Source: Candidatus Nealsonbacteria bacterium (lineage in GTDB: Bacteria > Patescibacteriota > Minisyncoccia > Minisyncoccales > JAGMDC01). Taken from it: a stretch of 64,000 nucleotides of DNA. The first letter of the stretch is position 1, and every line of letters starts with the position of its first letter. Location of the stretch: NCBI GenBank assembly GCA_030612885.1, contig JAUWMZ010000002.1:5834-69833 (forward strand), read 5' to 3'. A model generated the notes under the pieces. It was not told where the DNA came from, searched no databases, and saw only the letters and a list, made by a program, of their open reading frames with translations. Shown in pieces: positions 6,125 to 61,583 of the stretch. The translations under genes were made by a program, and so were the position numbers.

Positions 6125-6865
6125 ATGGGAGAGAAAAGAATTATCGTAGCTTTGGATAATGTAGAGGAACAGAAAGCATCATTGATTATGCAGGAACTAA
6201 GAGGACAAGTATATGGATTTAAGGCGAACGATTTGTTAGACAAGATTGGTCCGAGAGAGTGCATCTATTCTATTAAGCAATATGGGAGAGTGATGGCAGA
6301 TCCAAAACTTTGCGATATTCCTAATACCGTTGGAAATAGAATTGGGGTATATTTTGGTGCAGTCCAGGACCCTAACGGAGAGACAAAAGTAGTGGAAGAA
6401 TATCAAGCAAACATAGTAACAGTAATGGCTTGCGCTGGCATGCCAGCATTACAAAAGGCCGTGGAAGTAAAAGAGAAGCTTAAAGTTCCGACAGAAATAG
6501 CAGTAGTGACAGTATTGACTTCATTGAATGAGGAAGAATGCAATCTCACGCTTGGAGGACCGGTGAAAGCAAAAGTTTTGCAGTATGCTCGGAATGCAGC
6601 GTTTGCTGGATGCGACGCCATTGTTTGCTCGCCACAGGAACTTCTATTCTTAAGACAATTCCCAGAACTTGATGGTTTAAAGCGTATCATTCCGGGGATT
6701 AGGCCGAAAGGAGCAAAAGTGAATGACCAAAAAAGAATAGATACCCCGGAGGAAGCAGTAAGAAACGGAGCAGACAGAATAGTGATGGGCCGAGCGATAA
6801 CGGAAAGCGATGATCCATTGGGCGTTGTTCAGAGCATCAATAAATCTATTGAGAATATAGGTTGA
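6125..6865 (+). CDS. pyrF: Orotidine-5'-phosphate decarboxylase
   Basis: RIIVALD N-terminus and the ODCase signature K-x-x-DIPNT (DPKLCDIPNTV). AGGAGGTG RBS upstream of the ATG at 6125; the ORF-track start at 6110 is a GTG inside the RBS. Confidence 0.75.
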   Translation: MGEKRIIVALDNVEEQKASLIMQELRGQVYGFKANDLLDKIGPRECIYSIKQYGRVMADPKLCDIPNTVGNRIGVYFGAVQDPNGETKVVEEYQANIVTVMACAGMPALQKAVEVKEKLKVPTEIAVVTVLTSLNEEECNLTLGGPVKAKVLQYARNAAFAGCDAIVCSPQELLFLRQFPELDGLKRIIPGIRPKGAKVNDQKRIDTPEEAVRNGADRIVMGRAITESDDPLGVVQSINKSIENIG

Positions 6866-6927
6866 AAAGATTTTGTCGGGTGTTTCTTTTTTTGCCCGAC
6901 TGTAAATTTTTAGGAGGTGAAAAAAAA

Positions 6928-7626
6928 ATGGATATAGAAGAAGCAAGACATATAATGTCTTTAGGAGAAGTAAGTCGAGAAGTGAAGGATATGTTTGAGA
7001 TATGCAATGCTTTGTGGATTTATCAAGGATCACCGAATGAACCCCATGCTCTTTTAACAAAAGGAGGACATAGTGACGCATATTTCAATGTAAACGCAGT
7101 GACTCAATTTCCGAATTTCCGACGGCGGTTAGGATTGGACATAATGCTAAAGTTAGCGGATGCAGGGATTATAATGAAAGACGTAGATGTGGTGGTGTCG
7201 TCAACTTATGCCGCTACTTCTATTGGACAGGAAGTAGCAGATTATTTGGACGCAATGTTTGTTTTTACAGAAAAAGACGGAAAGGACCAAATATGGTCCG
7301 GGAGATTTGAGATTCCTTCTGGAGCCAGAGTATTACAAGTCGAAGAGCTAATTACTACTTTGAGTACTACCGAGAAAGTGAGAGGAGCGGTATTGAAAGA
7401 TAATTCTGATCCAGTTGAGTTTATAGAAAAAGATGGAAAAGTAGTAGTGGCTACGATTGTTCATCGACCGTCAAAGTTACCAATGAACTATTCCAGCTAC
7501 GAAGTCATGGCATTGATGGAAGTGGAGGTTCATAATTGGGATCCTGAAGAATGTCCGCTCTGTAAACAAGGATCGGAAGCATTGAAACCAAAACCAAATT
7601 GGCAGAAGTTTTTACAGGAAACCTAG
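6928..7626 (+). CDS. Type I phosphoribosyltransferase, orotate PRTase-like (PyrE-like) with C-terminal CxxC zinc ribbon
   Basis: PRPP-binding motif VLQVEELITTLSTTEK, which corresponds to VLLVDDVITTGGT with DD replaced by EE. N-terminal GGHSDAYFN region. AGGAGGTG RBS before the ATG at 6928. C-terminal CPLCKQG. Confidence 0.55.
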   Translation: MDIEEARHIMSLGEVSREVKDMFEICNALWIYQGSPNEPHALLTKGGHSDAYFNVNAVTQFPNFRRRLGLDIMLKLADAGIIMKDVDVVVSSTYAATSIGQEVADYLDAMFVFTEKDGKDQIWSGRFEIPSGARVLQVEELITTLSTTEKVRGAVLKDNSDPVEFIEKDGKVVVATIVHRPSKLPMNYSSYEVMALMEVEVHNWDPEECPLCKQGSEALKPKPNWQKFLQET

Positions 7627-7654
7627 AGAGACGAAAAAAATAAAAAAATAATAC

Positions 7655-7686
7655 GGTTCTGATTTTCCAGAACCGATTTTTTTTAC
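7655..7686 (+). terminator. Rho-independent terminator after the pyrE-like gene
   Basis: CGGTTCTG-attttc-CAGAACCG 8-bp stem followed by TTTTTTTT. A second weaker hairpin and T-run follow at 7687..7715. Confidence 0.65.
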
Positions 7687-7740
7687 TTTCCGAGCGAAGC
7701 GAAAGGTTTTTCTTTTTAAGAAGTGTGATATAATATCATA

Positions 7741-8382
7741 ATGAGAAAAACAAAATTTATTGCTTTGGCAATTATTGCATTATCATTTTTGATTGGCATT
7801 TATTTTTACAACATGATGCCAGAGATAATGGCTTCGCATTGGAATGCCCAAGGTGAGGTTGATGGCTATATGACAAAATTTTGGGCTTTGTTTTTGATGC
7901 CCTTAATGTCTTTGGGATTGCTTTTACTTTTTCTGGTGATTCCCAAAATTGATCCCTTAAAACAAAATATTGAAAAATTCAGAAAATACTTTGATATGTT
8001 TATTGTCTTGATGCTTGGTTTTCTGTTTTATGTTTATCTGCTGACTATTTTTTGGAATCTTGGCATTAGATTCAGTATGACGCAACTGATGATTCCAGCT
8101 ATGGCCGCTTTATTCTATTACTGCGGAATTTTAGTGGAAAATGCCAAAAGAAACTGGTTTATTGGAATTAGAACTCCCTGGACATTGAGCAGTGAAAAGG
8201 TCTGGGAGAAAACTCATAAACTGGGCGGTAAGCTATTCAAAGGCGCTGGTCTGATTATTCTTTTGGGATTTGTTTTGGAAAGTTACGCCTTGCTTTTTAT
8301 TTTAGTCCCAGTATTGTTTGTTAGTATTTATCTAATTGTTTATTCATATCTTGAATATCAAAAAGAAGTAAGAAATAATTGA
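7741..8382 (+). CDS. SdpI/YhfL-family (DUF1648) membrane protein
   Basis: N-terminal TM helix, the PEIMASHWNAQGEVDGYMTK motif typical of DUF1648, and 4 TM helices. Confidence 0.5.
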   Translation: MRKTKFIALAIIALSFLIGIYFYNMMPEIMASHWNAQGEVDGYMTKFWALFLMPLMSLGLLLLFLVIPKIDPLKQNIEKFRKYFDMFIVLMLGFLFYVYLLTIFWNLGIRFSMTQLMIPAMAALFYYCGILVENAKRNWFIGIRTPWTLSSEKVWEKTHKLGGKLFKGAGLIILLGFVLESYALLFILVPVLFVSIYLIVYSYLEYQKEVRNN

Positions 8383-8384
8383 AA

Positions 8385-8409
8385 TCAACGAGAACCGTTC
8401 TCGTTGATT
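8385..8409. repeat. REP-like palindrome variant ATCAACGAGAACCGTTCTCGTTGAT
   Basis: Perfect 25-bp palindrome sharing the ACGAGAAC..GTTCTCGT core with family A, located in an intergenic position. Confidence 0.7.
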
Positions 8410-8429
8410 TTTGTTGATTTATAGACATT

Positions 8430-9962
8430 ATGAGTATTAAAATATTAAAAAAAACAATATCTGTTTGTCCGGAATGTTTTAAAGCAGGGGAAATTAAGAA
8501 AATAGACGCTCAAATTATTGAGGAGGAAGGAAAGGTTTGGATGAGAAAAGAGTGCCCCATACATGGTGTTTTTAAATCAATATACTTCAGTTCTCCAGAA
8601 CTTTATCGTAAATGGATGAAGTATCAGGCAGACGGAACAGGTGTAAAAAATGTAGAAATTAAAAGCCTGCCTGACCCGCATTTTCTCTATCCAAAACATT
8701 TTTCCCAAACAGTTCTGACAAATTTAATGGTTACCAATAGGTGCAATTTGCGGTGCAGCTATTGCTTCATGAACGCCGGTGCTGCCGGTTATATTTATGA
8801 ACCATCTTTAGGGATGCTGAAAAAGATGATGCAGGCAGTAAGATTAGAGAAACCAGTTCCTTCAAAAGCACTCCAACTTACCGGGGGAGAGCCAACAATT
8901 AGAAATGATTTAATAGAAATTATCAAAATAGCTAAAAATATGGGGTTTGTTCATATTCAGTTAAACACCAATGGCATACGGCTTTCCGAGGAGCCGGAAT
9001 ACTGCCAAAAAATTCAAAAAGCAGGAGTAAATACTATTTATATGAGCTTTGACGGCGTTTCAAAGCAAACCAATCCCTGGATAGAGGAAAATAAAAGAGC
9101 TATAGAGAATCTAAGAAAAGCAGGCATAGGCGTTGTTTTGGTTCCCACTGTTATCGCTGATTCCAATCTTCAAGAAGCAGGAGAGATTGTTAAATATGCC
9201 ATAGAAAATATTGATGTAGTAAGAGGAGTTAATTTCCAGCCGATTTCTTTTTGCGGAAGAGCAGGATTTGTGCCAGACGAGGTTAGAAAAAGAAAAAGAG
9301 TTGATTATGTAAAACTTTTTGAGGTCTTAGAGAATTCTTTTGATGGACAGCTCACCAGAGATGATTTCTATCCTGTGCCATTTGTCTATCCAATATCAAA
9401 ATTAGTAGAAAGATTAAGGGGTGAGCCACAGGTTGAATTTACTGCCCATCCGGGCTGCGGCGGAGCCACTTATATATTTATTCAAAATGGAAAACTAATA
9501 CCAATAACCAGATTCATCAATGTAGAGAAGTTAAGGCAGTTCATTAAAGAACAATCAGAAAAATCAGGGCCATTTTATAGAGCAAGGGTAACCGCTTCTT
9601 TTTTAAAAAACATTTCTAAATTTATTATTCAGGATAAGATACCAAAAGGTTTAGATATTAAAGAGATTTTAATAAGCGCTATTACCAAAGGTCAATATAA
9701 ATCATTGGGTAAATTTCATCATCAAGCCCTTTTTATCGGTTCAATGTGGTTTCAGGATGTTTGGAATCTTAATCTGGAACGGTTGAAAAGATGCGTTATT
9801 CATTATTCTACTCCGGAAGGCATAGTGCCTTTTTGCGCTTACAATGGTTTGGGATATGGCGATGAAATCCGGAAGAGGCATTCTATGTCTGTTAAAGAAT
9901 GGGAGAAAAAGACAGGCAGAAAAATGAAAGACGACCTTTGGAAAAACGGTCCTATATCGTAA
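8430..9962 (+). CDS. Radical SAM enzyme with N-terminal zinc ribbon and C-terminal Cys-rich domain (family not resolved)
   Basis: CxxxCxxC radical-SAM cluster motif (TNRCNLRCSYCF), the glycine-rich SAM motif LTGGEPT, an N-terminal CPEC...CPIHG ribbon and C-terminal Cys residues (HPGCGG, CVIHY, FCAYNG). Confidence 0.6.
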   Translation: MSIKILKKTISVCPECFKAGEIKKIDAQIIEEEGKVWMRKECPIHGVFKSIYFSSPELYRKWMKYQADGTGVKNVEIKSLPDPHFLYPKHFSQTVLTNLMVTNRCNLRCSYCFMNAGAAGYIYEPSLGMLKKMMQAVRLEKPVPSKALQLTGGEPTIRNDLIEIIKIAKNMGFVHIQLNTNGIRLSEEPEYCQKIQKAGVNTIYMSFDGVSKQTNPWIEENKRAIENLRKAGIGVVLVPTVIADSNLQEAGEIVKYAIENIDVVRGVNFQPISFCGRAGFVPDEVRKRKRVDYVKLFEVLENSFDGQLTRDDFYPVPFVYPISKLVERLRGEPQVEFTAHPGCGGATYIFIQNGKLIPITRFINVEKLRQFIKEQSEKSGPFYRARVTASFLKNISKFIIQDKIPKGLDIKEILISAITKGQYKSLGKFHHQALFIGSMWFQDVWNLNLERLKRCVIHYSTPEGIVPFCAYNGLGYGDEIRKRHSMSVKEWEKKTGRKMKDDLWKNGPIS

Positions 9963-9990
9963 AGTTTCTTGTGGATAACCTCGGATTTTC

Positions 9991-10023
9991 AACGGCGGAG
10001 GCAAAATTTGACGCCGTTTTTTC
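9991..10023 (+). terminator. Probable rho-independent terminator
   Basis: AACGGCG ... CGCCGTT 7-bp stem (14-nt loop) followed by TTTTTTC. Confidence 0.45.
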
Positions 10024-10048
10024 ATCGGAGTAAAATGAAATAATATAT

Positions 10049-13000
10049 ATGAAAAACAAAATTACCAAAATTAAAAAAAGAGACGGCAAAATAGTTAATT
10101 TTGAGCAAGATAAAATTACCAAAGCGGTTTATAAGGCCCTTACTTCCAGCGGCCAGGGCGATGGGAAAAAATCAAAAAGAGTTTCCAATAGAGTTCTTCA
10201 GATTTTGGACAGGAGGTTTAAGAAAGATGAAGTTCCTACTGTAGAACAGATTCAAGATATTGTTGAAGAAGTTTTAATTTTAGAAAATTTAGTAGAAACA
10301 GCTAAGACATATATACTTTATCGGGAGCAGAGAAGAAGAATAAGGGAAGCAATTACGGTAAGCGAGGAAGCAGTAGATAGAGTTGACCAGTATTTGGGAA
10401 AACTGGACTGGGAGGTTCAGGAAAATGCTAATATGGCTTTTTCCTTGCAGGGCTTGAACCATTACGGTGTCACTTATATCATAAAAAAATACTGGCTTAA
10501 TAAAATTTATCCCAAGACGATAAGAGAAGTCAATGAATCAGGCGATTTGCATCTTCATGATTTGGATTCCTTAGCATGCTACACTTTTTTTGGTAGAGAG
10601 GTAGTAATTGTCAAATTAAATGGTCAGATTAAATTAATTTCTTTGAAAGATCTCTATGAAGAACTTTCACAACCCGAGGTTTTGCTGAACAGAAAAGATG
10701 AGGCCTTTGCTAAGTATCCAAAAAACCTTTATATTTTAGATAAAAATGATTGGACAAAAGTTCCTCGAATGGTAAGGAAAAAAAGAAAAAGAAAAATGCG
10801 ATTTATCAAATCCGAACAGGGCAGGAGTGTTATTGTTACTGATAATCACCCCTTTATCATAAAAGGGAAGGAGAAAGAAAAGGAAATTATGGTTGAAGCG
10901 AAAAAAGTTAAAGAAAAAGAAAATTCAGTGTTTTCGGCTTTTATTCCAAATTTATTGAAATCTGAAAATTTATTTTCTAAAAGATATTTATATTTAGCCG
11001 AAGAGTTAGTTAATAAAAAATATCAAGACTTCTTTTTAGAAGGATTTGCGTGGCAGGACTTTATCAAAAATTGGCAAGGATCTCTAAAAATTGAAGGGAC
11101 ATTAAGTACCTCAAATAGCGCTAACAGTTTAAATAATAAATTGGAGCTCACTGAAGATTTAGGTTATTTAGTGGGTTTTTTTATTGCGGAAGGTAATTAT
11201 GATAGTTGGAAATTATGCATTACTAACGATGACAACAAAACAATTAAAAAAATTCAAAGAATTTGTGCTAATTTAGGAATAAGAAGCTACTTAAATAAAA
11301 ATAAAGAAAGAACTAAACAAATTAATATTAGCAGCAGCACCCTAAAACTTGTCTTTGAGAAAGTTTTTCAAATAAAGCCGTTAAGCATAAATAAAAATTT
11401 ACCGGCAGATATTCTAAACTATAATTTAGATTTTGTTAAAGGAGTAATTGCTGGAATTATTGACGGAGATGGTAGTGTATATCCAGATAACAAAGCCCAT
11501 GGCGCTTCCCAGGTTTTAATTAGAGTTTCTTCCAGGACAATGCTTGAACAAATAGCAACTTTACTTCAATTTTTCGGAATTATTGCCAGAAGCGGAGCAA
11601 ATATTGAAGATATCGGTAAAAGTAAGATTTTTCGAGGAAGAGAGATTGTCCAAAATTATCCTATCTACCGATTAAATTTTTCGAAAAAGAAAGGTGTTGA
11701 TTTTCCTTCTTCTAAATATAAACAGGCGAAGATAGCTGAAAGACATTGGAGAGCAGAAGAATACGGCTGGAATAAAGTTTTGAATAATAAATTTACTACA
11801 ATTCCAGATGATACAATTTACGATATTACCACTGACTCTTCTACTTTTTTAGCCAATGGGCTTTTGGTTCATAATTGTATGGGTTGGGATTTATATGATC
11901 TTTTACTGAAAGGATTTGGCGGTGTTTCAGGAAAAGTAGAAACAAAGCCAGCCAAACATTTCAGAGCAATTTTAGGTCAGGCAGTGAATTTCTTATATAC
12001 AGTCCAGGGCGAATGCGCTGGCGCGATCGCTTTTTCAAATTTTGATACTCTTTTAGCGCCTTTTATTCGCTACGACAATTTGAATTATCAGCAAGTGAAA
12101 CAGTCCCTTCAGGAATTTTTATTCAATATGGCCGTACCTACCCGGGTCGGCTTCCAATGTCCTTTTTCGAATGTCACTTTAGACCTTAAACCCTCTTCGG
12201 TTTTTTCTAATCAGCCGGTTATCATTGGCGGCAAACCGCAGAAAGAAACATATGGCGAGTTTGGGGAGGAAATGAAAATTTTTAACAGAGCTTTTTATGA
12301 AATAATGCTGGAAGGAGATAAATCAGGAAGACCGTTTCATTTTCCTATTCCAACTATAAATATCACTAAAGATTTTCCCTGGGATGAGCCGGCTTTTGAT
12401 GGTGTGTTTGAAGCATCAGCAAAGTACGGAACTAATTATTTTAGTAACTATATTAACTCGGAGATGAAACCAGAAGATGTGCGTTCCATGTGTTGTCGTC
12501 TTAGGTTAGACATGACAGAACTTCACAACCGGGGTGGCGGAGGGTTATTTGGTTCAGGAACATTAACCGGTTCAATCGGCGTGGTCACCATTAATTTACC
12601 AAGGATTGGTTATCTTTCAAAAACCAAAAAAGAATTCTTTAAACAACTTGAAAAAATGATGGATTTAGCAAGAGAAAGTTTAGAAATAAAAAGAAAAACT
12701 ATTGAGGATTTCATTTCCAAAGGTTTATACCCGTATTCCAAATTTTATTTATCAGGCATTAAAAAGGCGCGCAATACCTATTTCGCCAATCATTTTTCAA
12801 CCATAGGTTTGATAGGAACGAATGAAGCAATTTTGAATTTCTTAGGTGAAAACATTGGTTCCCGCAGAGGCAAAAAATTCGCCTTGGAAATTTTAGATTT
12901 TATGAGAGAGAAACTAGTGAAATATCAAAAAGAAACTGGCAATATTTATAACTTAGAACAAACTCCAGCAGAAAGCACAAGTTATAGATTGGCTTTAAAA

Positions 13001-13450
13001 GATAGAGAAAAATATCCAGATATAATTACTGCTGGAACCAAAGAAAATCCCTACTACACCAATTCTACCCAGCTTCCGGTTGATTATACAAATGATGCCT
13101 TTGAGGCGTTAAAACTTCAAGACGAAATTCAATGTAAATATACAGGAGGCAGCGTACTCCATCTATTTTTAGGTGAAAAAATTTCTGATATTCAAACCGT
13201 AAAGAGTTTAATTAAGAAAGTTTTTGAGAAGTTTCACCTGCCCTACATTACCATAACTCCCACTTTTTCCATTTGCCCGGTTCATGGTTATTTGAGCGGA
13301 GAGCATTTTGAGTGCCCAAAATGTCTTATTAAACAACCTTGCGAAGTTTATTCCAGAGTAGTAGGATATTACCGCCCCGTGACTCAATACAATGTCGGGA
13401 AGCAACGCGAATTCAAAGAGAGGAAGGAATTTAAGATAAAATCATCTTAA
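10049..13450 (+). CDS. nrdD: Anaerobic (class III) ribonucleoside-triphosphate reductase with ATP-cone, interrupted by an intein
   Basis: N-terminal ATP-cone, the LHLHDLD motif, a C-terminal glycyl-radical motif SRVVGYYRPV and a CPVHG...CPKC zinc ribbon. The extein is about 700 aa once the intein at 10577..11875 is removed. Confidence 0.85.
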   Translation: MKNKITKIKKRDGKIVNFEQDKITKAVYKALTSSGQGDGKKSKRVSNRVLQILDRRFKKDEVPTVEQIQDIVEEVLILENLVETAKTYILYREQRRRIREAITVSEEAVDRVDQYLGKLDWEVQENANMAFSLQGLNHYGVTYIIKKYWLNKIYPKTIREVNESGDLHLHDLDSLACYTFFGREVVIVKLNGQIKLISLKDLYEELSQPEVLLNRKDEAFAKYPKNLYILDKNDWTKVPRMVRKKRKRKMRFIKSEQGRSVIVTDNHPFIIKGKEKEKEIMVEAKKVKEKENSVFSAFIPNLLKSENLFSKRYLYLAEELVNKKYQDFFLEGFAWQDFIKNWQGSLKIEGTLSTSNSANSLNNKLELTEDLGYLVGFFIAEGNYDSWKLCITNDDNKTIKKIQRICANLGIRSYLNKNKERTKQINISSSTLKLVFEKVFQIKPLSINKNLPADILNYNLDFVKGVIAGIIDGDGSVYPDNKAHGASQVLIRVSSRTMLEQIATLLQFFGIIARSGANIEDIGKSKIFRGREIVQNYPIYRLNFSKKKGVDFPSSKYKQAKIAERHWRAEEYGWNKVLNNKFTTIPDDTIYDITTDSSTFLANGLLVHNCMGWDLYDLLLKGFGGVSGKVETKPAKHFRAILGQAVNFLYTVQGECAGAIAFSNFDTLLAPFIRYDNLNYQQVKQSLQEFLFNMAVPTRVGFQCPFSNVTLDLKPSSVFSNQPVIIGGKPQKETYGEFGEEMKIFNRAFYEIMLEGDKSGRPFHFPIPTINITKDFPWDEPAFDGVFEASAKYGTNYFSNYINSEMKPEDVRSMCCRLRLDMTELHNRGGGGLFGSGTLTGSIGVVTINLPRIGYLSKTKKEFFKQLEKMMDLARESLEIKRKTIEDFISKGLYPYSKFYLSGIKKARNTYFANHFSTIGLIGTNEAILNFLGENIGSRRGKKFALEILDFMREKLVKYQKETGNIYNLEQTPAESTSYRLALKDREKYPDIITAGTKENPYYTNSTQLPVDYTNDAFEALKLQDEIQCKYTGGSVLHLFLGEKISDIQTVKSLIKKVFEKFHLPYITITPTFSICPVHGYLSGEHFECPKCLIKQPCEVYSRVVGYYRPVTQYNVGKQREFKERKEFKIKSS
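10577..11875 (+). mobile_element. Intein (433 aa) with LAGLIDADG homing-endonuclease domain inside nrdD
   Basis: Starts at the Cys after HDLDSLA and ends at ...LLVHN, followed by the C-extein CMGWDL. Two LAGLIDADG-type blocks (LGYLVGFFIAEGN and VKGVIAGIIDGDGSV) are present. The flanking extein (HDLD ... C-MGWDL) is contiguous with conserved NrdD sequence. Confidence 0.8.
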
Positions 13451-13508: not shown

Positions 13509-14225
13509 ATGCTTATCGGTGGTTTACAAAAAGTTACTTTAATTGATTATCCGGGCAAGGTTGCTTGCACGGTTTTTTTAATGGGCTGTAATTTTCGCTG
13601 TCCTTTTTGTTATAGCGGTGAACTTGTTTTGCCAAAAGAAATAAAAAAACAGCCAAGAATTTCAGAAAAAGTTTTTTTTGATTTTTTAAAAGAAAGGCAA
13701 GGATTATTAGAAGGAGTTGTTCTGTGCGGCGGCGAGCCGACTATTTCTGAAGATTTATTGGAATTCTGCCAGAAAATAAAAAAATTAGGATATTTGGTGA
13801 AATTAGATACTAATGGTTCAAACCCAAAAATGATTGAGAAATTGATAAAAGAAAGATTGATAGATTATGTGGCAATGGATATTAAAGCGCCGCAAAATAA
13901 ATATGGTTTTTGTTCAGGGAATAAAGCAGACATTAAAAATATCAAAAAAAGTGTTGAGTTTTTAAAGCAGGGAAAAATTGACTTTGAATTTAGGACTACG
14001 GTAGCTCCGGGATTAAGTGAATCAGATTTTTTAGAGATAGCTAACTGGATAGGGGTCCCTTCGACAAACTCAGGGCAAGCTCCAAAGTATTTTCTTCAGG
14101 AGTTTAATTCTCAAAAGCCGGTTTTAAATCCAGAAATTCTTAAACTTCCTGTTTTGAAACGAGAAGACATTGAGAAAGCTATTGAAACGATAAAACCAAA
14201 ATTTCAAACCTGCAAATTAAGATAA
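13509..14225 (+). CDS. nrdG: Anaerobic RNR activating protein (radical SAM)
   Basis: GCNFRCPFCY (CxxxCxxC) with the VVLCGGEPT motif, immediately downstream of nrdD. Confidence 0.8.
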   Translation: MLIGGLQKVTLIDYPGKVACTVFLMGCNFRCPFCYSGELVLPKEIKKQPRISEKVFFDFLKERQGLLEGVVLCGGEPTISEDLLEFCQKIKKLGYLVKLDTNGSNPKMIEKLIKERLIDYVAMDIKAPQNKYGFCSGNKADIKNIKKSVEFLKQGKIDFEFRTTVAPGLSESDFLEIANWIGVPSTNSGQAPKYFLQEFNSQKPVLNPEILKLPVLKREDIEKAIETIKPKFQTCKLR

Positions 14226-18970: not shown

Positions 18971-20542
18971 ATGGATATACCTTATTATTTAAAAATTGGC
19001 AAGGCGCCTGACGTTGAAAACCCAAAAGAAAGAATTATCTATAGAGCTTTTGAGGTTTTTCCTGGTGCTTTGGTTTGGCTCACCTTGGTTGGAATGTTTG
19101 TTTTATCCTGGTTCCGTCCGATCTGGGCAGCTATTTTTATTATTAGTTTCTGTGTTTATTGGTTATTAAGAAGTATTTATTTTTCTTCTTGTTTAGCTTT
19201 CTCTTATATAAAGCTTAATAAAAACTTAAATACTGACTGGCAAAGAAGGATAGCTGAATTATCGGTTTACAATCCTAAATTAGCGATTAAAGACTGGAAA
19301 GATATTTATCACTTAGTTATTTTTCCAATGTATAAAGAAAGCATAGAGATAGCCGGAGAAAGTTTTCAGGCATTAGTAGATTGTAATTATCCTAAAGATA
19401 AAATGATTGTCGTTTTAGGCATAGAAGAAAGGGCAGGAGAAGAAGCAGAAAAAGTAGCTCAAGAAATAGAAAAAGAGTTTGGCAATAAATTTTATAAATT
19501 TTTAATTACCAAACATCCAAACAATATTTCAGGAGAAATTGCCGGCAAGGGTTCTAATGAATGCTGGTCTGGCAGGGAAGTAAAGGAAAAAATAATAGAC
19601 CGAGAGAAAATTCCTTATGAAAAAATTATTGTTTCCAGTTTTGATATTGATACCCAAGTTTTCCCTCAATATTTTTCCTGTTTAACCTTTCATTATCTTA
19701 CTGATCCAGACCCGTTTCATTCCAGTTTTCAACCCATTCCTTTATATTTAAATAATCTTGAAGAAGCGCCTTTTTTTTCAAGAATTGTTGCCAGTTGTAA
19801 TGTTTTCTGGCAAATGATACAGCAGCAACGTCCGGAAAAGTTAGTTACTTATTCCTCTCATTCTATGAGTTTTAAGTCCTTAGTAGAAATGGATTTCTGG
19901 CAGAGCAATGTTGTTTCCGAAGATGCCGGCATATTTTGGAAATCATTTTTATTTTTTGACGGTGATTACAAAGTTATTCCTCTTCATTATCCTGTTTCCC
20001 AGGATAACTGTGTTGATAAAACTTTAAGAAAAACTGTTATCAATCAATACAAACAACAGCGGCGTTGGGCATGGGGAAGCGAAGGCATTCCTTATCTTTT
20101 ATTCGGCTTCTTCAAAAATAAGCAGATTTCTTTTAGAAAAAAGTTTCATTACGCGTTTTTAATGATAGAAGGATGTTGGGCTTGGGCAACCAATGCTTTG
20201 ATTATTCTTTTTTTGGGTTGGCTGCCTATTATTTTGGGTGGCAGTGAATTCAAGACAAGCTTGCTCTCTTATAATCTTCCAAGTATTACTGGCAATTTAA
20301 TGAAAATAGCTCTTTTTGCAGTAGTGGTCTTTTTGGTTGTTAATACTTTATTAATAGGTCTCCGTCCTTTTTATTTTGGCCGCTGGAAACATCTTTTTAT
20401 ACTTACGCAATGGCTTTTTTTGCCTTTTAGTTTAATAGTTTTTGGAGCCATTCCGGCTATTGATGCCCAGACCAGGTTGATGTTCGGCAAGTATATGGGT
20501 TTTTGGGTAACAGAAAAAGCCCGCTTTAAGAAAGAAATTTGA
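18971..20542 (+). CDS. Processive family-2 membrane glycosyltransferase (cellulose/chitin-synthase-like)
   Basis: QxxRW motif (QQRRWAWG), a preceding SEDAG (TED-like) motif, D-x-D (FDIDTQ), and N- and C-terminal TM helices. Confidence 0.65.
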   Translation: MDIPYYLKIGKAPDVENPKERIIYRAFEVFPGALVWLTLVGMFVLSWFRPIWAAIFIISFCVYWLLRSIYFSSCLAFSYIKLNKNLNTDWQRRIAELSVYNPKLAIKDWKDIYHLVIFPMYKESIEIAGESFQALVDCNYPKDKMIVVLGIEERAGEEAEKVAQEIEKEFGNKFYKFLITKHPNNISGEIAGKGSNECWSGREVKEKIIDREKIPYEKIIVSSFDIDTQVFPQYFSCLTFHYLTDPDPFHSSFQPIPLYLNNLEEAPFFSRIVASCNVFWQMIQQQRPEKLVTYSSHSMSFKSLVEMDFWQSNVVSEDAGIFWKSFLFFDGDYKVIPLHYPVSQDNCVDKTLRKTVINQYKQQRRWAWGSEGIPYLLFGFFKNKQISFRKKFHYAFLMIEGCWAWATNALIILFLGWLPIILGGSEFKTSLLSYNLPSITGNLMKIALFAVVVFLVVNTLLIGLRPFYFGRWKHLFILTQWLFLPFSLIVFGAIPAIDAQTRLMFGKYMGFWVTEKARFKKEI

Positions 20543-35531: not shown

Positions 35532-38500
35532 ATGTCTAAAATGAAAAAAATCGTTGCTAGTATTACTACTTTGGCCTGCGCGTCAATGATGATGGGTATG
35601 GTTGTAATGCCGGCTCAGGCAATAACTGCTGAGGAATTGCAGGTTCAGATTGACGCTTTATTGGCTCAATTGACTCAATTGCAAACCCAGTTAGCCGAGC
35701 TTCAAGGTGTAACCCCAACCGTTGAAGGTTGTACCATCACCAGTTTTGACCGCAATTTGTCAATAGCAATGACTGGCGACGATGTTAAATGTTTACAGAT
35801 TGTTTTAAACACTGATTCTGTAACAAAATTAGCTGATTCTGGCGCTGGTTCTCCAGGAAATGAAACTTCTTACTTTGGTCCTATAACCAAAGCAGCAGTT
35901 ATCAAATTCCAGGAGAAATACGCTGATGAAGTATTAGCTTCTTGGGGTTTAACTTCTGGAACCGGTTATGTTGGTTCAACAACCAGAACAAAGTTAAATT
36001 CTCTTTTGACTGCTGAACCAGTAACTCCTACTGGTTGTGATTGTGATGATTGGGTAAATGTTGCTTGCGGAGGCGGTGATTGTACTGCCACCCAAATGCA
36101 GCAAACTCGAACCTGTACTCCAGAGGAAGGCGCTGCAGCTGATGTTTGTGACGGAGTAGCTGTTAGTCAGTGTGTGGCTGACGCAAGTTGTGTTGTTGCC
36201 GCTGAAGGAGCACTAAATGTGGCTTTAGCCGATGACACTCCAGCTGCTGCTACTGTTCCAGCTGCTACTACTACTAATAGAGCTGCTAATGTGATAATGA
36301 CCAAAGTGAACTTGACTGCTGGTGACGGGAATGTTACTATTACCGGCTTAAAAATTCTTAGGTCTGGTATTAGCAAGGACGCAGCTATTGATACCATCAA
36401 ATTATATGATGGCGCAACTAAGATTGGAACCAGTCAGAGCTTGGGTTCAAATTCTAAAGCAAACTTTAGTAATATTTCCATTGATGTTGAGGCAAACACT
36501 ACCAAGACTATTGATATTAAGGCCACTATGACTGGAGGAAGTACTTATAATGGAAATGTTATTGCATTAGGAATTGCTTCAGCTGATGATATTACTTCTA
36601 ATGCTACTGAAGTTACTGGTACTTTTCCATTAAATGGTAATAGTATGACTTTAACCTCTTCTGTCACTATTGGTACAGCTACTTTATACGATGGTTCAAT
36701 GGGAGACAGAAATGACACTGATTTAACAGTTAATCCAACTGATACTGATATTAGATTTGCCCAGGTTAAGATAATGGCTGGTTCAGCAGAAGGTTTTATT
36801 GTTGAAAATATAACAGCAGTTAAAAATGGAACTGCTGCTTCTGCTGATGTAACTAATATCAGATTAGTTAATGACACTTCTGGCGAGACCTTGGGAACTG
36901 TTGATTCTCTTGATGCTGATGGCAGGGCTGTATTCAGCGGATTAAATGTCAGTGTTGGCAAAGGTGGTTATATTGAATTGAGCGTTGTAGCTGATATGAA
37001 TAATTCTGGGGCTGGTAGAACCATAACCTTTGATTTACACGATGGAACCGATTATACTATTGATGTAACCGGTTCTACTTATGGCTATGGTATAGCTGTA
37101 ACCTTTGATAATTTCTGTATTTCAGGTGGTACTTGTAAACAGCAGACCATTAATCGAGGTTATTTAACAGTCCAGAAATCAGCTAGCACACCAGCTACTG
37201 GATATATTGCTATTGGAGCAACCCAGGTTGAAATAGCTGCTTTTGATTTTACAGCTTATGGTGAACCGATTAATGTTACTCAATGCCAGGTTTTAATTGA
37301 CCCAACTACTGGTGAAGCTGACCAGTTCACTAATATTACTGGTTATGATGGCGATGGTAATGTTCTTTTTGGTCCCAAAGATGGTAGTACTGCAACTGCC
37401 GATACTGATGAAACCTTAACCTTTACTGACGCTTTTACTTTGCCAATTGGGACTACAGTGGTTTACATTAAGACAAATGTTGCCAGTGATGTGACAGCTG
37501 AGGATACAGTTGATTTTGAGATTCCAGCTAATTCTGTAACAGCTAAAGGATCCACTTCTGGAAAGACCACTTATACTATTTCTGCCACTTCAGGTGATGT
37601 GCCTCCAACTGCAGCCCGTACCGGTAACACAATGACTATTCAAGGTCCTGCTTTGAAAGTTGTTACTGCTGGTACTCCAGCTGCTGGAGATGTAGTGAAA
37701 GGCGCTCAAAATGAGGTATTTGCTTATTTTGACCTTGATGCTTCTGCCTCTGGAGAAAATGTAAAGGTAACCCAGATTAAAACCCTTGATGCTAGTGGCG
37801 CTAGTGGTATTACTGCAAACACGAGTTACGATGAAGATATTATCAATTTAGAGTTATGGGGCGATCCTGACACCACTGATGCTGTTTCTGAAAATGTCAT
37901 ATTAGAGACAAGTACTTCAACAGCCACTCAGGATACTACTACTGTTCTTACTACCTTTACCTTTAAAACACCTTTGAAAGTTAAGAAAGGAACAACTAAC
38001 AGATTAACCTTGAAAGCAGATGTGACAGCAGATGCTACAGCAGCAGCCCATCGATTTTTACTTGGTACTAGTGGAAGTACTACCGGTCATGTTACCTCTG
38101 CTGGATGGTCAACCGGCACTGCTATTACTGAATCATATAGTGGTCAAGGACAGCAACAGACAGTTCAGACCACGGGTAAGTTGAAAGTAGTTGCTTCAGC
38201 TGATATACCAGCAAAAGCAATGTTTGTAGCAGGCACAACTGGTAATACTATGATGGAGTATCGAATGTATGCTATGTATGAAGATGTTGATGTGACTTAC
38301 TTCTATATTGCTACTGAAGGAACTGAAGTTGATGTTCGAGCTAGCATAGATAAGGTAAAACTGTATTATGACGGTGCACAAATTGGTGATGTTAATGGTT
38401 ATTCTTTAGATGTTGGCGGAGATGTCTATGTTACTTTGAGTGCTGGAGAGCTAACAGTGCCAAAGGATACTTGGAAGAACCTTGTGATAAAAGTTGACTT

Positions 38501-39368
38501 GACTGATAGAGCTCAATTGGTTGATGATGCTGATGTGGAAATTGGGTTAGGCGATTACACCAATCATGATGATACTGATTGGGGAGACGATAGCGCTACT
38601 GCTTCTGGCAAGTCCTATTACATGATAGCTACTGGTGCAAAATCTGGTACTACAATTACTAATGACCAGTCCACAGGTTATGTCAACAGCACTGCTACAA
38701 GCGCAGGTGTGATTTCAGCCAGCTACCAGCACTTTATGTACGATGGTGTTTTGGTGGTCAGCAAGAATTCTGCATCACCGTCTGGCAGCTTTACTGGCGG
38801 TGCTAATACAGAAGTATTAAGATTAGATTTGGAAGCAGTTGGTGATGATATTACCATTAATGAAATGGAATTCTGTGTTACTGGTTCTGAAACCACTGTT
38901 AATGGAACAGGTGACCTAACCATCAAGAACCTTGCTAAAACCACTACTTATGCCACAGTAACCCAAAGCGGTTATGATGCTTATTGGGATACTTTGTTAG
39001 GCGCTTCTGATTATTACCCATTGACCCCAGGTGTTAGTGGAGGTTCCTGTTTCTCTATTGGTGACAGTCACCAAACTGGTGAGACCGAAACAGGCAAATC
39101 AGGAAAGAATATAACACCGTTCTCTACTACCTTGCAGATTGCTGAAGGAACTACTAAAACCATTGTAGTTCTTGGTGACGCCAGTCGTTCTGGCACCACT
39201 GCCAGCAAGACCTTGCAGCTGAACTTACAAGCAAACTCAAGCGGTAGTTTTGATGCTACTACAGAAGGTATTGAATGGGAGAATAATACTGGAACTGATG
39301 TAGGAGACGAGACAGATGAGAGCGTTACTAATAACCTGCCAATTACTGGTGGTACATTGGTCTACTAA
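35532..39368 (+). CDS. Giant (1278 aa) secreted surface protein: signal peptide, coiled-coil, peptidoglycan-binding-like domain, Cys-rich module, long Thr/Ser/Gly-rich beta-repeat region
   Basis: Signal peptide MKKIVASITTLACASMMMGMVVMPAQA. PG_binding_1-like MTGDDVKCLQIVLN ... YFGPITKAAVIKFQEKY. A CxC-rich segment, followed by >1000 aa of low-complexity beta-strand repeats. Confidence 0.75.
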   Translation: MSKMKKIVASITTLACASMMMGMVVMPAQAITAEELQVQIDALLAQLTQLQTQLAELQGVTPTVEGCTITSFDRNLSIAMTGDDVKCLQIVLNTDSVTKLADSGAGSPGNETSYFGPITKAAVIKFQEKYADEVLASWGLTSGTGYVGSTTRTKLNSLLTAEPVTPTGCDCDDWVNVACGGGDCTATQMQQTRTCTPEEGAAADVCDGVAVSQCVADASCVVAAEGALNVALADDTPAAATVPAATTTNRAANVIMTKVNLTAGDGNVTITGLKILRSGISKDAAIDTIKLYDGATKIGTSQSLGSNSKANFSNISIDVEANTTKTIDIKATMTGGSTYNGNVIALGIASADDITSNATEVTGTFPLNGNSMTLTSSVTIGTATLYDGSMGDRNDTDLTVNPTDTDIRFAQVKIMAGSAEGFIVENITAVKNGTAASADVTNIRLVNDTSGETLGTVDSLDADGRAVFSGLNVSVGKGGYIELSVVADMNNSGAGRTITFDLHDGTDYTIDVTGSTYGYGIAVTFDNFCISGGTCKQQTINRGYLTVQKSASTPATGYIAIGATQVEIAAFDFTAYGEPINVTQCQVLIDPTTGEADQFTNITGYDGDGNVLFGPKDGSTATADTDETLTFTDAFTLPIGTTVVYIKTNVASDVTAEDTVDFEIPANSVTAKGSTSGKTTYTISATSGDVPPTAARTGNTMTIQGPALKVVTAGTPAAGDVVKGAQNEVFAYFDLDASASGENVKVTQIKTLDASGASGITANTSYDEDIINLELWGDPDTTDAVSENVILETSTSTATQDTTTVLTTFTFKTPLKVKKGTTNRLTLKADVTADATAAAHRFLLGTSGSTTGHVTSAGWSTGTAITESYSGQGQQQTVQTTGKLKVVASADIPAKAMFVAGTTGNTMMEYRMYAMYEDVDVTYFYIATEGTEVDVRASIDKVKLYYDGAQIGDVNGYSLDVGGDVYVTLSAGELTVPKDTWKNLVIKVDLTDRAQLVDDADVEIGLGDYTNHDDTDWGDDSATASGKSYYMIATGAKSGTTITNDQSTGYVNSTATSAGVISASYQHFMYDGVLVVSKNSASPSGSFTGGANTEVLRLDLEAVGDDITINEMEFCVTGSETTVNGTGDLTIKNLAKTTTYATVTQSGYDAYWDTLLGASDYYPLTPGVSGGSCFSIGDSHQTGETETGKSGKNITPFSTTLQIAEGTTKTIVVLGDASRSGTTASKTLQLNLQANSSGSFDATTEGIEWENNTGTDVGDETDESVTNNLPITGGTLVY

Positions 39369-59074: not shown

Positions 59075-60196
59075 ATGGAAAAAATAGCTTTTTTAATCAA
59101 TTCAATGGCAGGAGGTGGAGCAGAAAGAGTTTTGACTATATTATTAAAGAATTTGTCGCGAGAGAACAGAGAGTTTTTTCTAATAGTTTTAGAAGATAAG
59201 TTTAGTTATGAAATTCCAAAAGATATAAAAATAATCAAACTTTTTTCTAATTTGAAAGGTAATTTTAAAAAATTATTTGCCATATTTTTAGCAGCAGTAA
59301 AATTGAGAAAAATTATTAAGGAGAACCAAATTAATATTGTAATGAGTTTTTTAGAAAGAAGTAATTACATAAATATTTTAGCTAAAAATTATAGTTCTTC
59401 CCATAAGGTTTATATTAGCGAAAGAGCTAATCCCTTGAAATATTACTCAGGCAAAAATCCAAAATCAATTTTTAACTTATTTGCAATCAAAAGATTATAT
59501 AAAAAAGCTGACTTAATAATCCCAAATTCTTTAGGTGTTAAAGAAAGCCTAATTAAGGATTTTTCTATTAATCCAAAAAAAATTAAAGTAATCTACAATC
59601 CTATTAATATAAAAGAAATTCAAACTTTTTCCCAAAAGCCGTTAGAACCAGAGTATCAAAAAATATTTAAATGTTCTATAATTATTAATGTGGGTCGACT
59701 TATTAAAGAAAAGGGGCAAGAATACCTAATAGAAGCTTTTAAGGAGGTAAAAAAAGAGATTCCCAAAGCCAAGCTTTTAATTTTAGGAACAGGAGAACTG
59801 GAAAGCTATCTTAAAGATTTGACTAAAAAACTATGTTTAGAAAATGATGTTTTGTTTTTGGGGTGGCAAAAAAATCCTTTTAAATTTTTAACCCGGGCAA
59901 AAGTTTTTGTTCTTTCTTCTTTGACAGAAGGTTTTCCTAATTCCTTAATTGAAGCAATGGCTTGCGGAGTGCCGGTGGTTTCAACAAGCTGTCCTTCAGG
60001 ACCAAATGAAATTATTAAAAATAGAGAAAATGGAATTTTAGTTCCAGTAGCCGATGAACAAGCTTTAGCCAGGGCAATCATTGAACTTTTAAATGATTTT
60101 TCTCTAAGAAAAAGATTTTCTCAAGAAGAAAAAAGGCGGATTCAAGATTTTTCAGTAAAAAATATTATTTATCAATATGAACAACTCTTTTCTTAA
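59075..60196 (+). CDS. Glycosyltransferase family 4
   Basis: EGFPNSLIEAMACGVPVVST. Start at the internal ATG (ORF track 59042). Confidence 0.75.
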   Translation: MEKIAFLINSMAGGGAERVLTILLKNLSRENREFFLIVLEDKFSYEIPKDIKIIKLFSNLKGNFKKLFAIFLAAVKLRKIIKENQINIVMSFLERSNYINILAKNYSSSHKVYISERANPLKYYSGKNPKSIFNLFAIKRLYKKADLIIPNSLGVKESLIKDFSINPKKIKVIYNPINIKEIQTFSQKPLEPEYQKIFKCSIIINVGRLIKEKGQEYLIEAFKEVKKEIPKAKLLILGTGELESYLKDLTKKLCLENDVLFLGWQKNPFKFLTRAKVFVLSSLTEGFPNSLIEAMACGVPVVSTSCPSGPNEIIKNRENGILVPVADEQALARAIIELLNDFSLRKRFSQEEKRRIQDFSVKNIIYQYEQLFS

Positions 60197-61583
60197 AAAA
60201 TATTATATTCCTATTATTATAATTTCCATTATTTCACTGGGAATAATTGCTGTTTTAGATGAAGTTCTGGCAGTAGGGTTTATTCTTTTGGGTTTTCTAA
60301 CAGGGATTACTTTCCTTATTCTTTCTAAGTTCGGGTTCAAAAACAGAACCCTGTATTTACTTTTATTAATTGTCTTGGTAATTCATCTTGGCGCGGCTTT
60401 ATTTATTCATTATGCTGATTTTCAACCCTTTGGTACAGGAGGGGGAGATTTTACAAGTTATCATAAGATGGCAATAGAGATGTCTCAAGGTTTTAAGCAG
60501 GGAAGTTTTTCATTAGAAGGATTAGAAGTTTCCCATTATTATCCAGTTATTATAGGAATTATATATACTTTTACTTTACCAGAAATGCTAATTGGTCAAT
60601 TATTTGGAGTTTGGTTAGTAGTTCTCGGAGTTCTATTTACATATTTAATAATTATTGAAATTGGTGGCTCAAAAAAATGGGCTTTTTTAATTGGACTAAT
60701 TGTCAGTGTTTATCCAAGTTATCTTTTTTACGGTAGTTTATTGCTTAAGGATGCTTTAGTTGTTTCTTTAGCTTTAGCTGGATTATTGTTTTGTCTGAAA
60801 TTAATTAAAAATTTTTCATGGAGAAACTTCTTAGTTTTTTATATAATTTTAGCTGGTTTAATTCATTTTCGCTTTTATATTGGTTATGCCTTGCTTTTTA
60901 CTTTTATTTTATGCTGGTTGTTAACTTCTAATTTAAACTTAAGAAAAAGGGTTGTTTATGCTATTATTATTATTCCCCTTTTAGGATTTTTACCACAAAT
61001 TTCAGCAAACCAAGGATTTTTTGGCATAGATTCTTTTAAGGGATTCCTTAATCATGAAGTTCTTACTTTTTATCAAGAAAAAGCTTATAGTCCTCCACCT
61101 CAAGATTCTTCTTTAGAGAGTCAGGATTTATCAATATCTCCAGATTCTTCATTTTCAGATTCTTTTTACGATTCCAATCTCTTAATCAATGATTATCCAA
61201 AAGGGTATGCTTCTACTTGGGAAAAGAGAAAAATAAGTTTTGAGGAAAACCCTTTTAAATTTTTAGTAAATTACTTAAAATATTTTAGCTATATTTCATT
61301 AGGGCCTTTTCCTTGGCAGATGAAATATACTCGGCATTTGTTTGCTTTGTTTGAGACAATACCATTGTTTTTTTTGCTTTTTTTTATTATTAGAGGAATT
61401 ATACAATCTATTAGATGCCGTAATAAACTTATTATTCCATTAATACTTTTTAGTTTTATAGTTCTGTTAGTTATGACCGTCTTTTTTAACAACTATGGAA
61501 TTATTACCAGGATTCGCATTCCTGCTTTTATATCTCTTTTGTGTTTAATTCCATTTGGCTTTAAAAAATATGGAGAAAACTAA
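60177..61583 (+). CDS. Polytopic membrane protein, possible polysaccharide polymerase/Wzy-like
   Basis: More than 10 TM helices and a periplasmic loop. No firm motif. Confidence 0.45.
   Translation: MNNSFLKKYYIPIIIISIISLGIIAVLDEVLAVGFILLGFLTGITFLILSKFGFKNRTLYLLLLIVLVIHLGAALFIHYADFQPFGTGGGDFTSYHKMAIEMSQGFKQGSFSLEGLEVSHYYPVIIGIIYTFTLPEMLIGQLFGVWLVVLGVLFTYLIIIEIGGSKKWAFLIGLIVSVYPSYLFYGSLLLKDALVVSLALAGLLFCLKLIKNFSWRNFLVFYIILAGLIHFRFYIGYALLFTFILCWLLTSNLNLRKRVVYAIIIIPLLGFLPQISANQGFFGIDSFKGFLNHEVLTFYQEKAYSPPPQDSSLESQDLSISPDSSFSDSFYDSNLLINDYPKGYASTWEKRKISFEENPFKFLVNYLKYFSYISLGPFPWQMKYTRHLFALFETIPLFFLLFFIIRGIIQSIRCRNKLIIPLILFSFIVLLVMTVFFNNYGIITRIRIPAFISLLCLIPFGFKKYGEN

Follow-up and report, generated by a model that had tools for sequence, protein, structure and literature searches.

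In the 64,000-nucleotide stretch of Candidatus Nealsonbacteria DNA analyzed here (contig JAUWMZ010000002.1, called the window in the following), a single open reading frame (ORF) of 1133 amino acids (aa) at 10049..13450 (+) was identified as nrdD, the gene for the anaerobic ribonucleotide reductase (RNR), interrupted by an intein. The intein occupies 10583..11875 (+), which corresponds to 1293 nt or 431 aa, and covers residues Thr179 to Asn609 of the precursor. Most probably, it is an in-frame mobile intein located between Tyr178 and the active-site Cys of the RNR, which splices by a class 1 mechanism started by its own first residue, a threonine (Thr1). The element as such is of an ordinary kind, namely a mobile LAGLIDADG intein at an RNR active-site hot spot, but its nucleophile is unusual and conserved. 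While an intein in an RNR is by itself routine, the annotation of this one and, if Thr1 is the working nucleophile, the chemistry at position 1 are not. The action of Thr1 as nucleophile, efficient splicing and an active endonuclease are all three what we infer.

Both ends of the ORF belong to NrdD, as they matched the NCBIfam models PRK08270 with 1011.6 bits (cutoff 548) and TIGR02487 with 531 bits (cutoff 326) as well as the NRDD and ATP-cone families of Pfam. In addition to profile scores above the curated cutoffs, a glycyl-radical motif, finger-loop cysteines, a C-terminal Zn site and an adjoining nrdG were found, and the 3.4-kb frame runs without a break. The middle of the ORF matched Intein_splicing (PF14890, 40 bits, cutoff 35.8), LAGLIDADG_3 and Hom_end of Pfam and the NCBIfam models for N- and C-terminal intein splicing regions, TIGR01445 and TIGR01443. 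A reading made from the sequence alone had already proposed a LAGLIDADG intein of 433 aa in NrdD and had named the Hint splicing blocks and the LAGLIDADG motifs as features to look for. An intein in nrdD is thus real, well beyond anything that chance would produce. These profile matches confirm the type of element and the presence of both features, but neither the length nor the start of the intein could be retained.

For the definition of the boundaries, the joined exteins, with a Cys-Tyr pair retained ahead of the insertion point, were used as query and returned thousands of NrdDs. The closest of these, P0016 from a Candidatus Parcubacteria, is 95% identical and intein-free. It reads ...HLHDLDSLACY directly followed by CMGWDL..., and is thereby contiguous across the junctions, which lie at 10582 and 11876 in the window. 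All of the intein-free NrdDs inspected (120/120) contain x-Tyr-Cys-x-Gly-Trp-Asp-Leu, and five of these 120 contain exactly HLHDLDSLACYCMGWDL. The contig of P0016 (L001) is syntenic with the window, with an SdpI-like gene, a radical S-adenosylmethionine (radical-SAM) gene, nrdD, nrdG and comEC. When both were compared by blastn, 7707-10582 of the window aligned to 3695-6534 of L001 and 11876-13440 to 6535-8099. The DNA homology breaks between 10582 and 10583 and between 11875 and 11876, both of which correspond to the same point between 6534 and 6535 of L001, where the intein-free site reads ...GATTCCTTAGCATGTTAC to the left and TGCATGGGTTGGGATTTATATGA... to the right. As the bases beside the break differ, with A in the window vs T in L001 on the left and T vs C on the right, the position of the break cannot be slid. 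Independently of blastn, position 6 of the TIGR01445 profile falls on residue 184, which makes residue 179 position 1. What was found is hence an in-frame insert in a conserved host protein, which is missing from the orthologues and around which the host sequence is contiguous, as expected of an intein.

The sequence-only reading had begun the intein at Cys177, resulting in a 433-aa class 1 element of the pattern C...HN, which would join ...DSLA to CMGWDL. This start suggests itself because Cys177 lies only two residues upstream and C...HN followed by Cys is the commonest intein pattern. Nevertheless, it has next to no chance of being correct. The resulting product would be devoid of the Cys-Tyr that is kept in 120/120 intein-free orthologues, the Tyr belongs to the active site in NrdDs of this subclass (PMC4493059), and the DNA homology to the intein-free locus extends through the TGC TAC codons. 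Moreover, allelic inteins contain Pro, Ala, Val, Thr, Ser or Gly at the position of Cys177, which therefore is not the nucleophile. A search with the insert itself retrieved homologous NrdD inteins in which this position is occupied by Val, Ala, Pro or Thr, and Tyr-Thr or, once, Tyr-Ser comes next. Cys177 is thus ruled out as the intein start by the orthologue and DNA alignments; the earlier N-terminal junction was set two residues too early, Cys177-Tyr178 belongs to the extein, and the intein begins with Thr179. The C-terminal junction, Asn609 followed by Cys610 (11875/11876), had been placed correctly, as it coincides with the blastn break. A contiguous alignment of the exteins to intein-free NrdD, which had been suggested as a check, is obtained with the corrected junction only and fails with the one at Cys177. 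Choosing the nearest Cys as start yields a wrong mature protein here, in which Cys-Tyr beside the catalytic Cys is lost, and in intein calling, automated or manual, the junctions should be anchored on intein-free orthologues.

As a side observation, the Cys codons flanking the insertion point differ synonymously between both loci, with TGC...TGT in the window (10577-10579 and 11876-11878) and TGT...TGC in L001 (6529-6537), while hardly any other difference is seen in the 40 nt around them. They may be alterations of the endonuclease target or chance differences.

Alignment of the joined exteins with the NrdD of T. maritima (4COI) placed Tyr178 (position -1) on Tyr124 and Cys+1 on Cys125. The latter, equivalent to Cys79 of T4 and Cys175 of E. 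coli, is conserved in all RNRs and has a role in the reductive half-reaction, while Tyr124, a conserved residue of its NrdD subclass, is directed toward O2' and O3' of the ribose (PMC4493059). The intein thus parts two neighboring active-site residues, the equivalents of Tyr124 and Cys125, and the unspliced 1133-aa precursor presumably cannot be an active reductase. This is in line with the earlier proposals that the insertion lies directly before the conserved catalytic Cys and that splicing is needed to rebuild the enzyme. One may speculate that a disulfide between Cys177 of the precursor (position -2, 10577-10579) and Cys+1 could trap the precursor under oxidizing conditions, which would be of interest in an oxygen-sensitive enzyme; as Cys, Pro, Ala, Val, Thr, Ser and Gly all occur at position -2 of the alleles, the idea is a speculative one.

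Within the intein, the Hint blocks A, B, F, and G are all present. Block A, TFFGREVVIV, begins with the ACT codon of Thr1, the proposed initiating nucleophile, at 10583..10585 (+). Block B, VTDNHP, is located at 10835..10852 (+) and contains Thr86 and His89 of the intein at B:7 and B:10, with Phe instead of Trp at B:12; T, N, H, and P of this block are invariant and D nearly so in two family alignments. Blocks F and G extend over 11816..11875 (+) and read I412-Y-D414-I-T-T-D ... L-L-V-H430-N431, with Asp414 at F:4, Val at G:5 and His430-Asn431 at G:6-7. The terminal LLVHN together with Cys+1 is found at 11861-11878. B:7 Thr, B:10 His and F:4 Asp are conserved family-wide. LAGLIDADG motif 1, LGYLVGFFIAEGN, at 11159..11197 (+) was assigned by Pfam LAGLIDADG_3 and by alignments with I-DmoI and the family, and motif 2, KGVIAGIIDGDGS, at 11438..11476 (+) by the I-DmoI and family alignments. 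Their acidic residues are Glu203 of the intein (...FFIAEG..., 11189-11191, +) and Asp296 (...IIDGDG..., 11468-11470, +). Two stretches matching PF14528, both acidic residues and a pseudo-dimeric alpha-beta fold like those of I-DmoI and I-Tsp061I characterize a two-motif LAGLIDADG endonuclease.

A PDB sequence search with the intein yielded only weak matches to I-DmoI and VMA inteins. An AlphaFold2 model based on 16 family sequences reached a mean predicted local distance difference test (pLDDT) score of 83 and a predicted template modeling (pTM) score of 0.88. Foldseek returned as best solved structures (E = 1e-20 to 1e-11) the endonuclease-bearing inteins TliVMA (7QSS/7QSU), PhoVMA (7QST), PI-TkoII (2CW7), PI-PfuI (1DQ3), and PI-SceI (1VDE), followed by mini-inteins and I-DmoI. 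As in these inteins, the endonuclease of the NrdD intein lies within a Hint fold, between blocks B and F, and the NrdD intein shares with them, all of class 1, the TxxH of block B, the Asp of block F, the terminal His-Asn and a nucleophilic +1 residue. It differs from them in its host and insertion site, in an identity of only 13-18% and in the fact that they start with Cys or Ser, whereas it starts with Thr, as does its clade. The element is a full-length mobile intein, composed of a Hint splicing domain and a nested two-motif LAGLIDADG endonuclease.

Departures from Cys1 or Ser1 are also known from class 2 (KlbA) and class 3 inteins (MP-Be DnaB, with the WCT triplet), but these lack a nucleophile at position 1 and carry Ala, Pro or Gly there. 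The signature of class 3 consists of a non-nucleophilic residue 1 with Trp at B:12, Cys at F:4 and Thr at G:5 (PMC2807308). Since the NrdD intein contains Phe, Asp and Val at the three triplet positions and Thr as residue 1, a class 3 mechanism is ruled out.

In class 1 splicing started by Thr1, the 431-aa insert would remove itself and join ...LACY to CMGWDL..., with a 702-aa NrdD as product and an expected ligated junction peptide of ...SLACYCMGWDLYDLLLK. With the assistance of Thr86 and His89 of block B and Asp414 of block F, the hydroxyl group of Thr1 would act on the Tyr178-Thr179 bond in an N-to-O acyl shift. Cys+1 would then take over the N-extein by transesterification, Asn431 would cyclize with the aid of His430, and an S-to-N shift would restore the peptide bond. 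This course is favored because the helper residues for the acyl shift and for Asn cyclization are all present, because position 1 is limited to three residues able to do the chemistry, and because an engineered S1T variant of the Tli pol-2 intein splices, as cited in PMC2807308, which shows that Thr at position 1 can perform the acyl shift and permit splicing. In the Tli pol-2 intein the Thr was introduced in the laboratory, whereas Thr1 of the NrdD intein is natural and conserved in a large family. Of the class 1 features, B:7 Thr, B:10 His, F:4 Asp and a C-terminal His-Asn with Cys+1 were all found; at position 1, Thr179 stands where the described natural members have Cys or Ser. The class 1 definitions of the Perler laboratory admit Ser1, Thr1 or Cys1 (PMC5222942).

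The limitation of position 1 was observed in inteins from a wide range of sequences. When 1.84 billion representatives were searched exhaustively and without a profile, 820 matches were obtained at E <= 1e-3, and the best 150 of them were parsed. These comprised 58 inteins at the same NrdD site with a visible N-terminal junction and Tyr at -1. Of these inteins, 32 start with Thr, 16 with Ser and 10 with Cys, but none with a non-nucleophile such as Ala, Gly or Pro. Five further Thr1 cases are outside this count as they missed the upstream-motif filter; their flanks likewise read ...PY followed by T. Where the N-terminal junction had been identified, HN followed by Cys was present at 48 of 49 allelic C-terminal junctions, the remaining one being KN followed by Cys. 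Among the best 150 of the 820 matches, the inteins of other host proteins all start with a residue other than Thr. The alleles with Thr1, Ser1 and Cys1 at this one insertion site come from Patescibacteria, other bacteria and apparently gut jumbo phages. In a neighbor-joining tree of 50 full-length members the residue at position 1 is specific to the clade, and clades with Thr reach as deep as ~30% identity. The codon of Thr1 is ACT in the window, ACA in L002, ACT in L003, and ACC in L004, a synonymous change by which the amino acid is kept. Codons for Thr, Ser, and Cys are joined by single-base steps, so that a Cys-Ser-Thr series would be mutationally easy. Position 1 covaries with F:2 (Ile412, 11816-11818), which is Ile in 26/26 Thr1 members and Val in 24/24 members with Ser1 or Cys1; the Ile may compensate for the extra methyl group of Thr or may reflect phylogenetic inertia, and we take the covariation as a lead. 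That these sequences are natural class 1 inteins forming one large family, with threonine as initiating nucleophile, is a real possibility, to which we give slightly less than an even chance.

Several points weigh against Thr1 as the starting nucleophile. Thr is beta-branched, natural inteins with Thr1 are reported as unobserved (PMC2807308), and in two reviews, of 2020 and 2023, the residues listed for position 1 are only Cys and Ser, with Thr mentioned solely at +1 (PMC7664689, PMC10663303). From general chemistry, the combination of Thr1 with Cys+1 would make the second step an exchange of an oxygen ester for a thioester and thus uphill. The covariation of position 1 and F:2 represents only ~2-3 independent switches, and position 1 may be confined to Thr, Ser or Cys in part because the structure needs a small polar residue there.

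The presumably unfavorable ester exchange is also what gives some weight to a class 2-like course of the KlbA type, in which Cys+1 attacks the Tyr178-Thr179 bond directly and Thr1 merely shapes the active site. It would agree with the invariance of Cys+1 and with the use of Cys+1 for direct attack by class 2 inteins (PMC10663303). Still, we regard it as unlikely, since class 2 inteins are marked by a non-nucleophilic Ala1, whereas a residue able to act as nucleophile (Thr, Ser or Cys) is found at position 1 in 58/58 alleles, and since the full set of class 1 helpers (B:7 Thr, B:10 His, F:4 Asp) is conserved. The invariance of Cys+1 is uninformative on the mechanism, as this residue is fixed by the host enzyme anyway.

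Compared with its closest genomic copies (L002 and L003, inteins 67-68% identical), the window showed proportions of synonymous differences (pS) of 0.73-0.86 and of nonsynonymous differences (pN) of ~0.20. A pN of ~0.20 was obtained in the Hint halves as well as in the endonuclease part, and the exteins are similar with 0.20-0.25. For the inteins of L002 and L003 compared with each other, pN was 0.10 and pS 0.68. With pS above 0.7 the synonymous sites are saturated, which is why contrasts of pN and pS are given and not a proper dN/dS. The whole intein, including its endonuclease part, is under purifying selection. These values bear on the idea that the insert is a decaying, non-splicing remnant, that nrdD is inactive here and that another RNR supplies the deoxynucleotides. 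The non-canonical Thr1 would be in accordance with decay, and as 64 kb of the genome are in view, another RNR could lie beyond. We consider this explanation highly improbable, because the 3.4-kb frame is unbroken with all catalytic motifs of NrdD and intein intact, pN relative to relatives with saturated synonymous sites is only ~0.2 in intein and exteins alike, nrdG is retained, and Thr1 persists throughout deep clades of bacterial and phage alleles.

The distribution of the intein is discordant with that of the host gene. NrdDs that are 93-95% identical to the exteins of the window are intein-free (P0016, P0017, P0019, and P0020), and the nearest inteins (67-68% identical) reside in NrdDs that are only 57-69% identical, from metagenome-assembled genomes (MAGs) labeled Candidatus Staskawiczbacteria and Candidatus Saccharibacteria. 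A copy with 41% identity was found in a MAG of the Melioribacteraceae. The same junctions, Tyr before Thr and HN before Cys, recur in more remote alleles (27-34% identical) on phage-like contigs, which reach 329 kb in length and have genes for DnaB, RecA, a 5'-3' exonuclease and a gp25-like baseplate protein. This discordance and the two intact acidic residues of the LAGLIDADG motifs together form the pattern that would be expected of an active homing element. Its endonuclease would cut intein-free nrdD around ...GCATGTTAC and TGCATGGGTTGG..., at the point where these adjoin, and repair would copy the intein in.

Fragmentation of nrdD by inteins and group I introns is known from phages, namely Clostridium phage c-st/D-1873 and Lactococcus phage 949 (PMC3653736) and the gut 'Jug' jumbo phages (PMC12880540). 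The phage-like contigs with an allelic Thr1 intein between Tyr and Cys (P0011, L005/L006) match the fragmented nrdD of the 'Jug' phages (PMC12880540). Neither of the two papers on phage NrdD inteins (PMC3653736, PMC12880540) describes the insertion site or the first residue. In 50,697 phage records, tblastn with the intein as query yielded nothing at E <= 1e-3, and no tie to the NrdD intein of Clostridium phage c-st was found; a search with the phage-type homologue P0011 reached only NrdD extein parts, in Lak and other phages. The group I intron in nrdD of phage T4 is also a selfish homing element that targets conserved nrdD sequence (PMC1865063). Unlike the NrdD intein, it is removed as RNA and not as protein, and there is no sequence kinship between them.

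In the literature searched, which was mostly open-access and did not include a current curated intein database, no report of a natural Thr1 intein was found, and this negative result is a weak one. As to priority, no description of a Thr1 family was found, but a claim to it can be made only with reserve. If Thr1 is indeed the working nucleophile, nature uses all three residues that are possible at position 1. In that case, dozens of diverged Thr1 sequences, along with sister inteins of the Ser1 and Cys1 type from the same site, would be available for studies of the mechanism and for engineering, for example of thiol-insensitive ester-forming inteins or of slower or conditional splicing. The family would also constitute a natural experiment on how the active site of the Hint domain adapts to its nucleophile, and it raises the question why Thr1 is concentrated at one site of NrdD.

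Additional inteins were observed in close relatives of this nrdD. The exteins of P0018 are 95-98% identical to those of the window; this protein has no intein between Tyr and Cys but one at another site (corresponding to ~12491/12492 of the window). Its LAGLIDADG-type insert of 331 aa lies between adjacent finger-loop cysteines (RSMC, then PLSG...LTHN, then CRLR) and would have to start with Pro for MCC to be restored. Its F:4 residue is Cys, its G:5 residue is Thr, and Cys+1 follows, which makes it class 3-like, but it is devoid of the B:12 Trp. Among close NrdDs of Patescibacteria, P0001 carries a second intein, located after LQGE and before C, P0061 one at FQ before C...GN and CPFS, and P0081 one after GSGSKTG and before C. 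Counting the site in the window and that of P0018, at least five insertion sites exist in one gene family. Intein traffic in nrdD of Patescibacteria is very active, with at least five sites in close relatives and three allele types within ~95% protein identity; on the topic of inteins in Patescibacteria, nothing was found in the literature searched. The phage-like contig L005, which encodes P0011 with its allelic Thr1 intein, contains two group I introns at 7059-7325 and 7577-7854 (Rfam RF00028, 83.6 and 69.4 bits), directly after the '...FQQIV' end of the called protein, and a further Intein_splicing ORF downstream. P0011-P0015 look truncated because group I introns, together with this downstream ORF, interrupt the phage-type nrdD.

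Within the nrdD of the window, the N-extein at 10049..10582 (+) comprises aa 1-178 with the ATP-cone, H168-L-H-D171 and the C-terminal Cys177-Tyr178, as defined by Pfam, the 4COI alignment, the orthologues and blastn. The C-extein at 11876..13450 (+), assigned by PRK08270 and TIGR02487, begins with Cys+1 (Cys610 of the precursor). It contains the finger-loop RSMCCRLR (12482-12505, +), the Zn-ribbon cysteines (CPVHG...CPKC, 13274-13324, +) and the glycyl-radical motif RVVGYYRP (13355-13378, +). That nrdG lies downstream and a radical-SAM gene upstream, as noted earlier, was borne out by profile searches. The gene at 13509..14225 (+) encodes the radical-SAM activase of NrdD (TIGR02495 NrdG2, 209.4 bits, cutoff 131) and has the same place in the syntenic L001, and the upstream radical-SAM gene is located at 8430..9962 (+). 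Elsewhere in the window, three ORFs on the same strand, 35532..39368, 18971..20542 and 60177..61583 (1278, 523 and 468 aa), had no Pfam match at E <= 1e-5, and tRNA and Rfam scans of the whole 64 kb found no RNA gene. The product of the upstream radical-SAM gene scored above the NCBIfam equivalog cutoff for Tes, the archaeal tetraether (glycerol dialkyl glycerol tetraether, GDGT) lipid synthase (575.8 vs 450 bits), and contains an HMPTM zinc-ribbon. This Tes-like gene is part of a Parcubacteria-like genome and keeps the same position in the syntenic L001, and such an enzyme in an ultra-small bacterium may merit a separate study.

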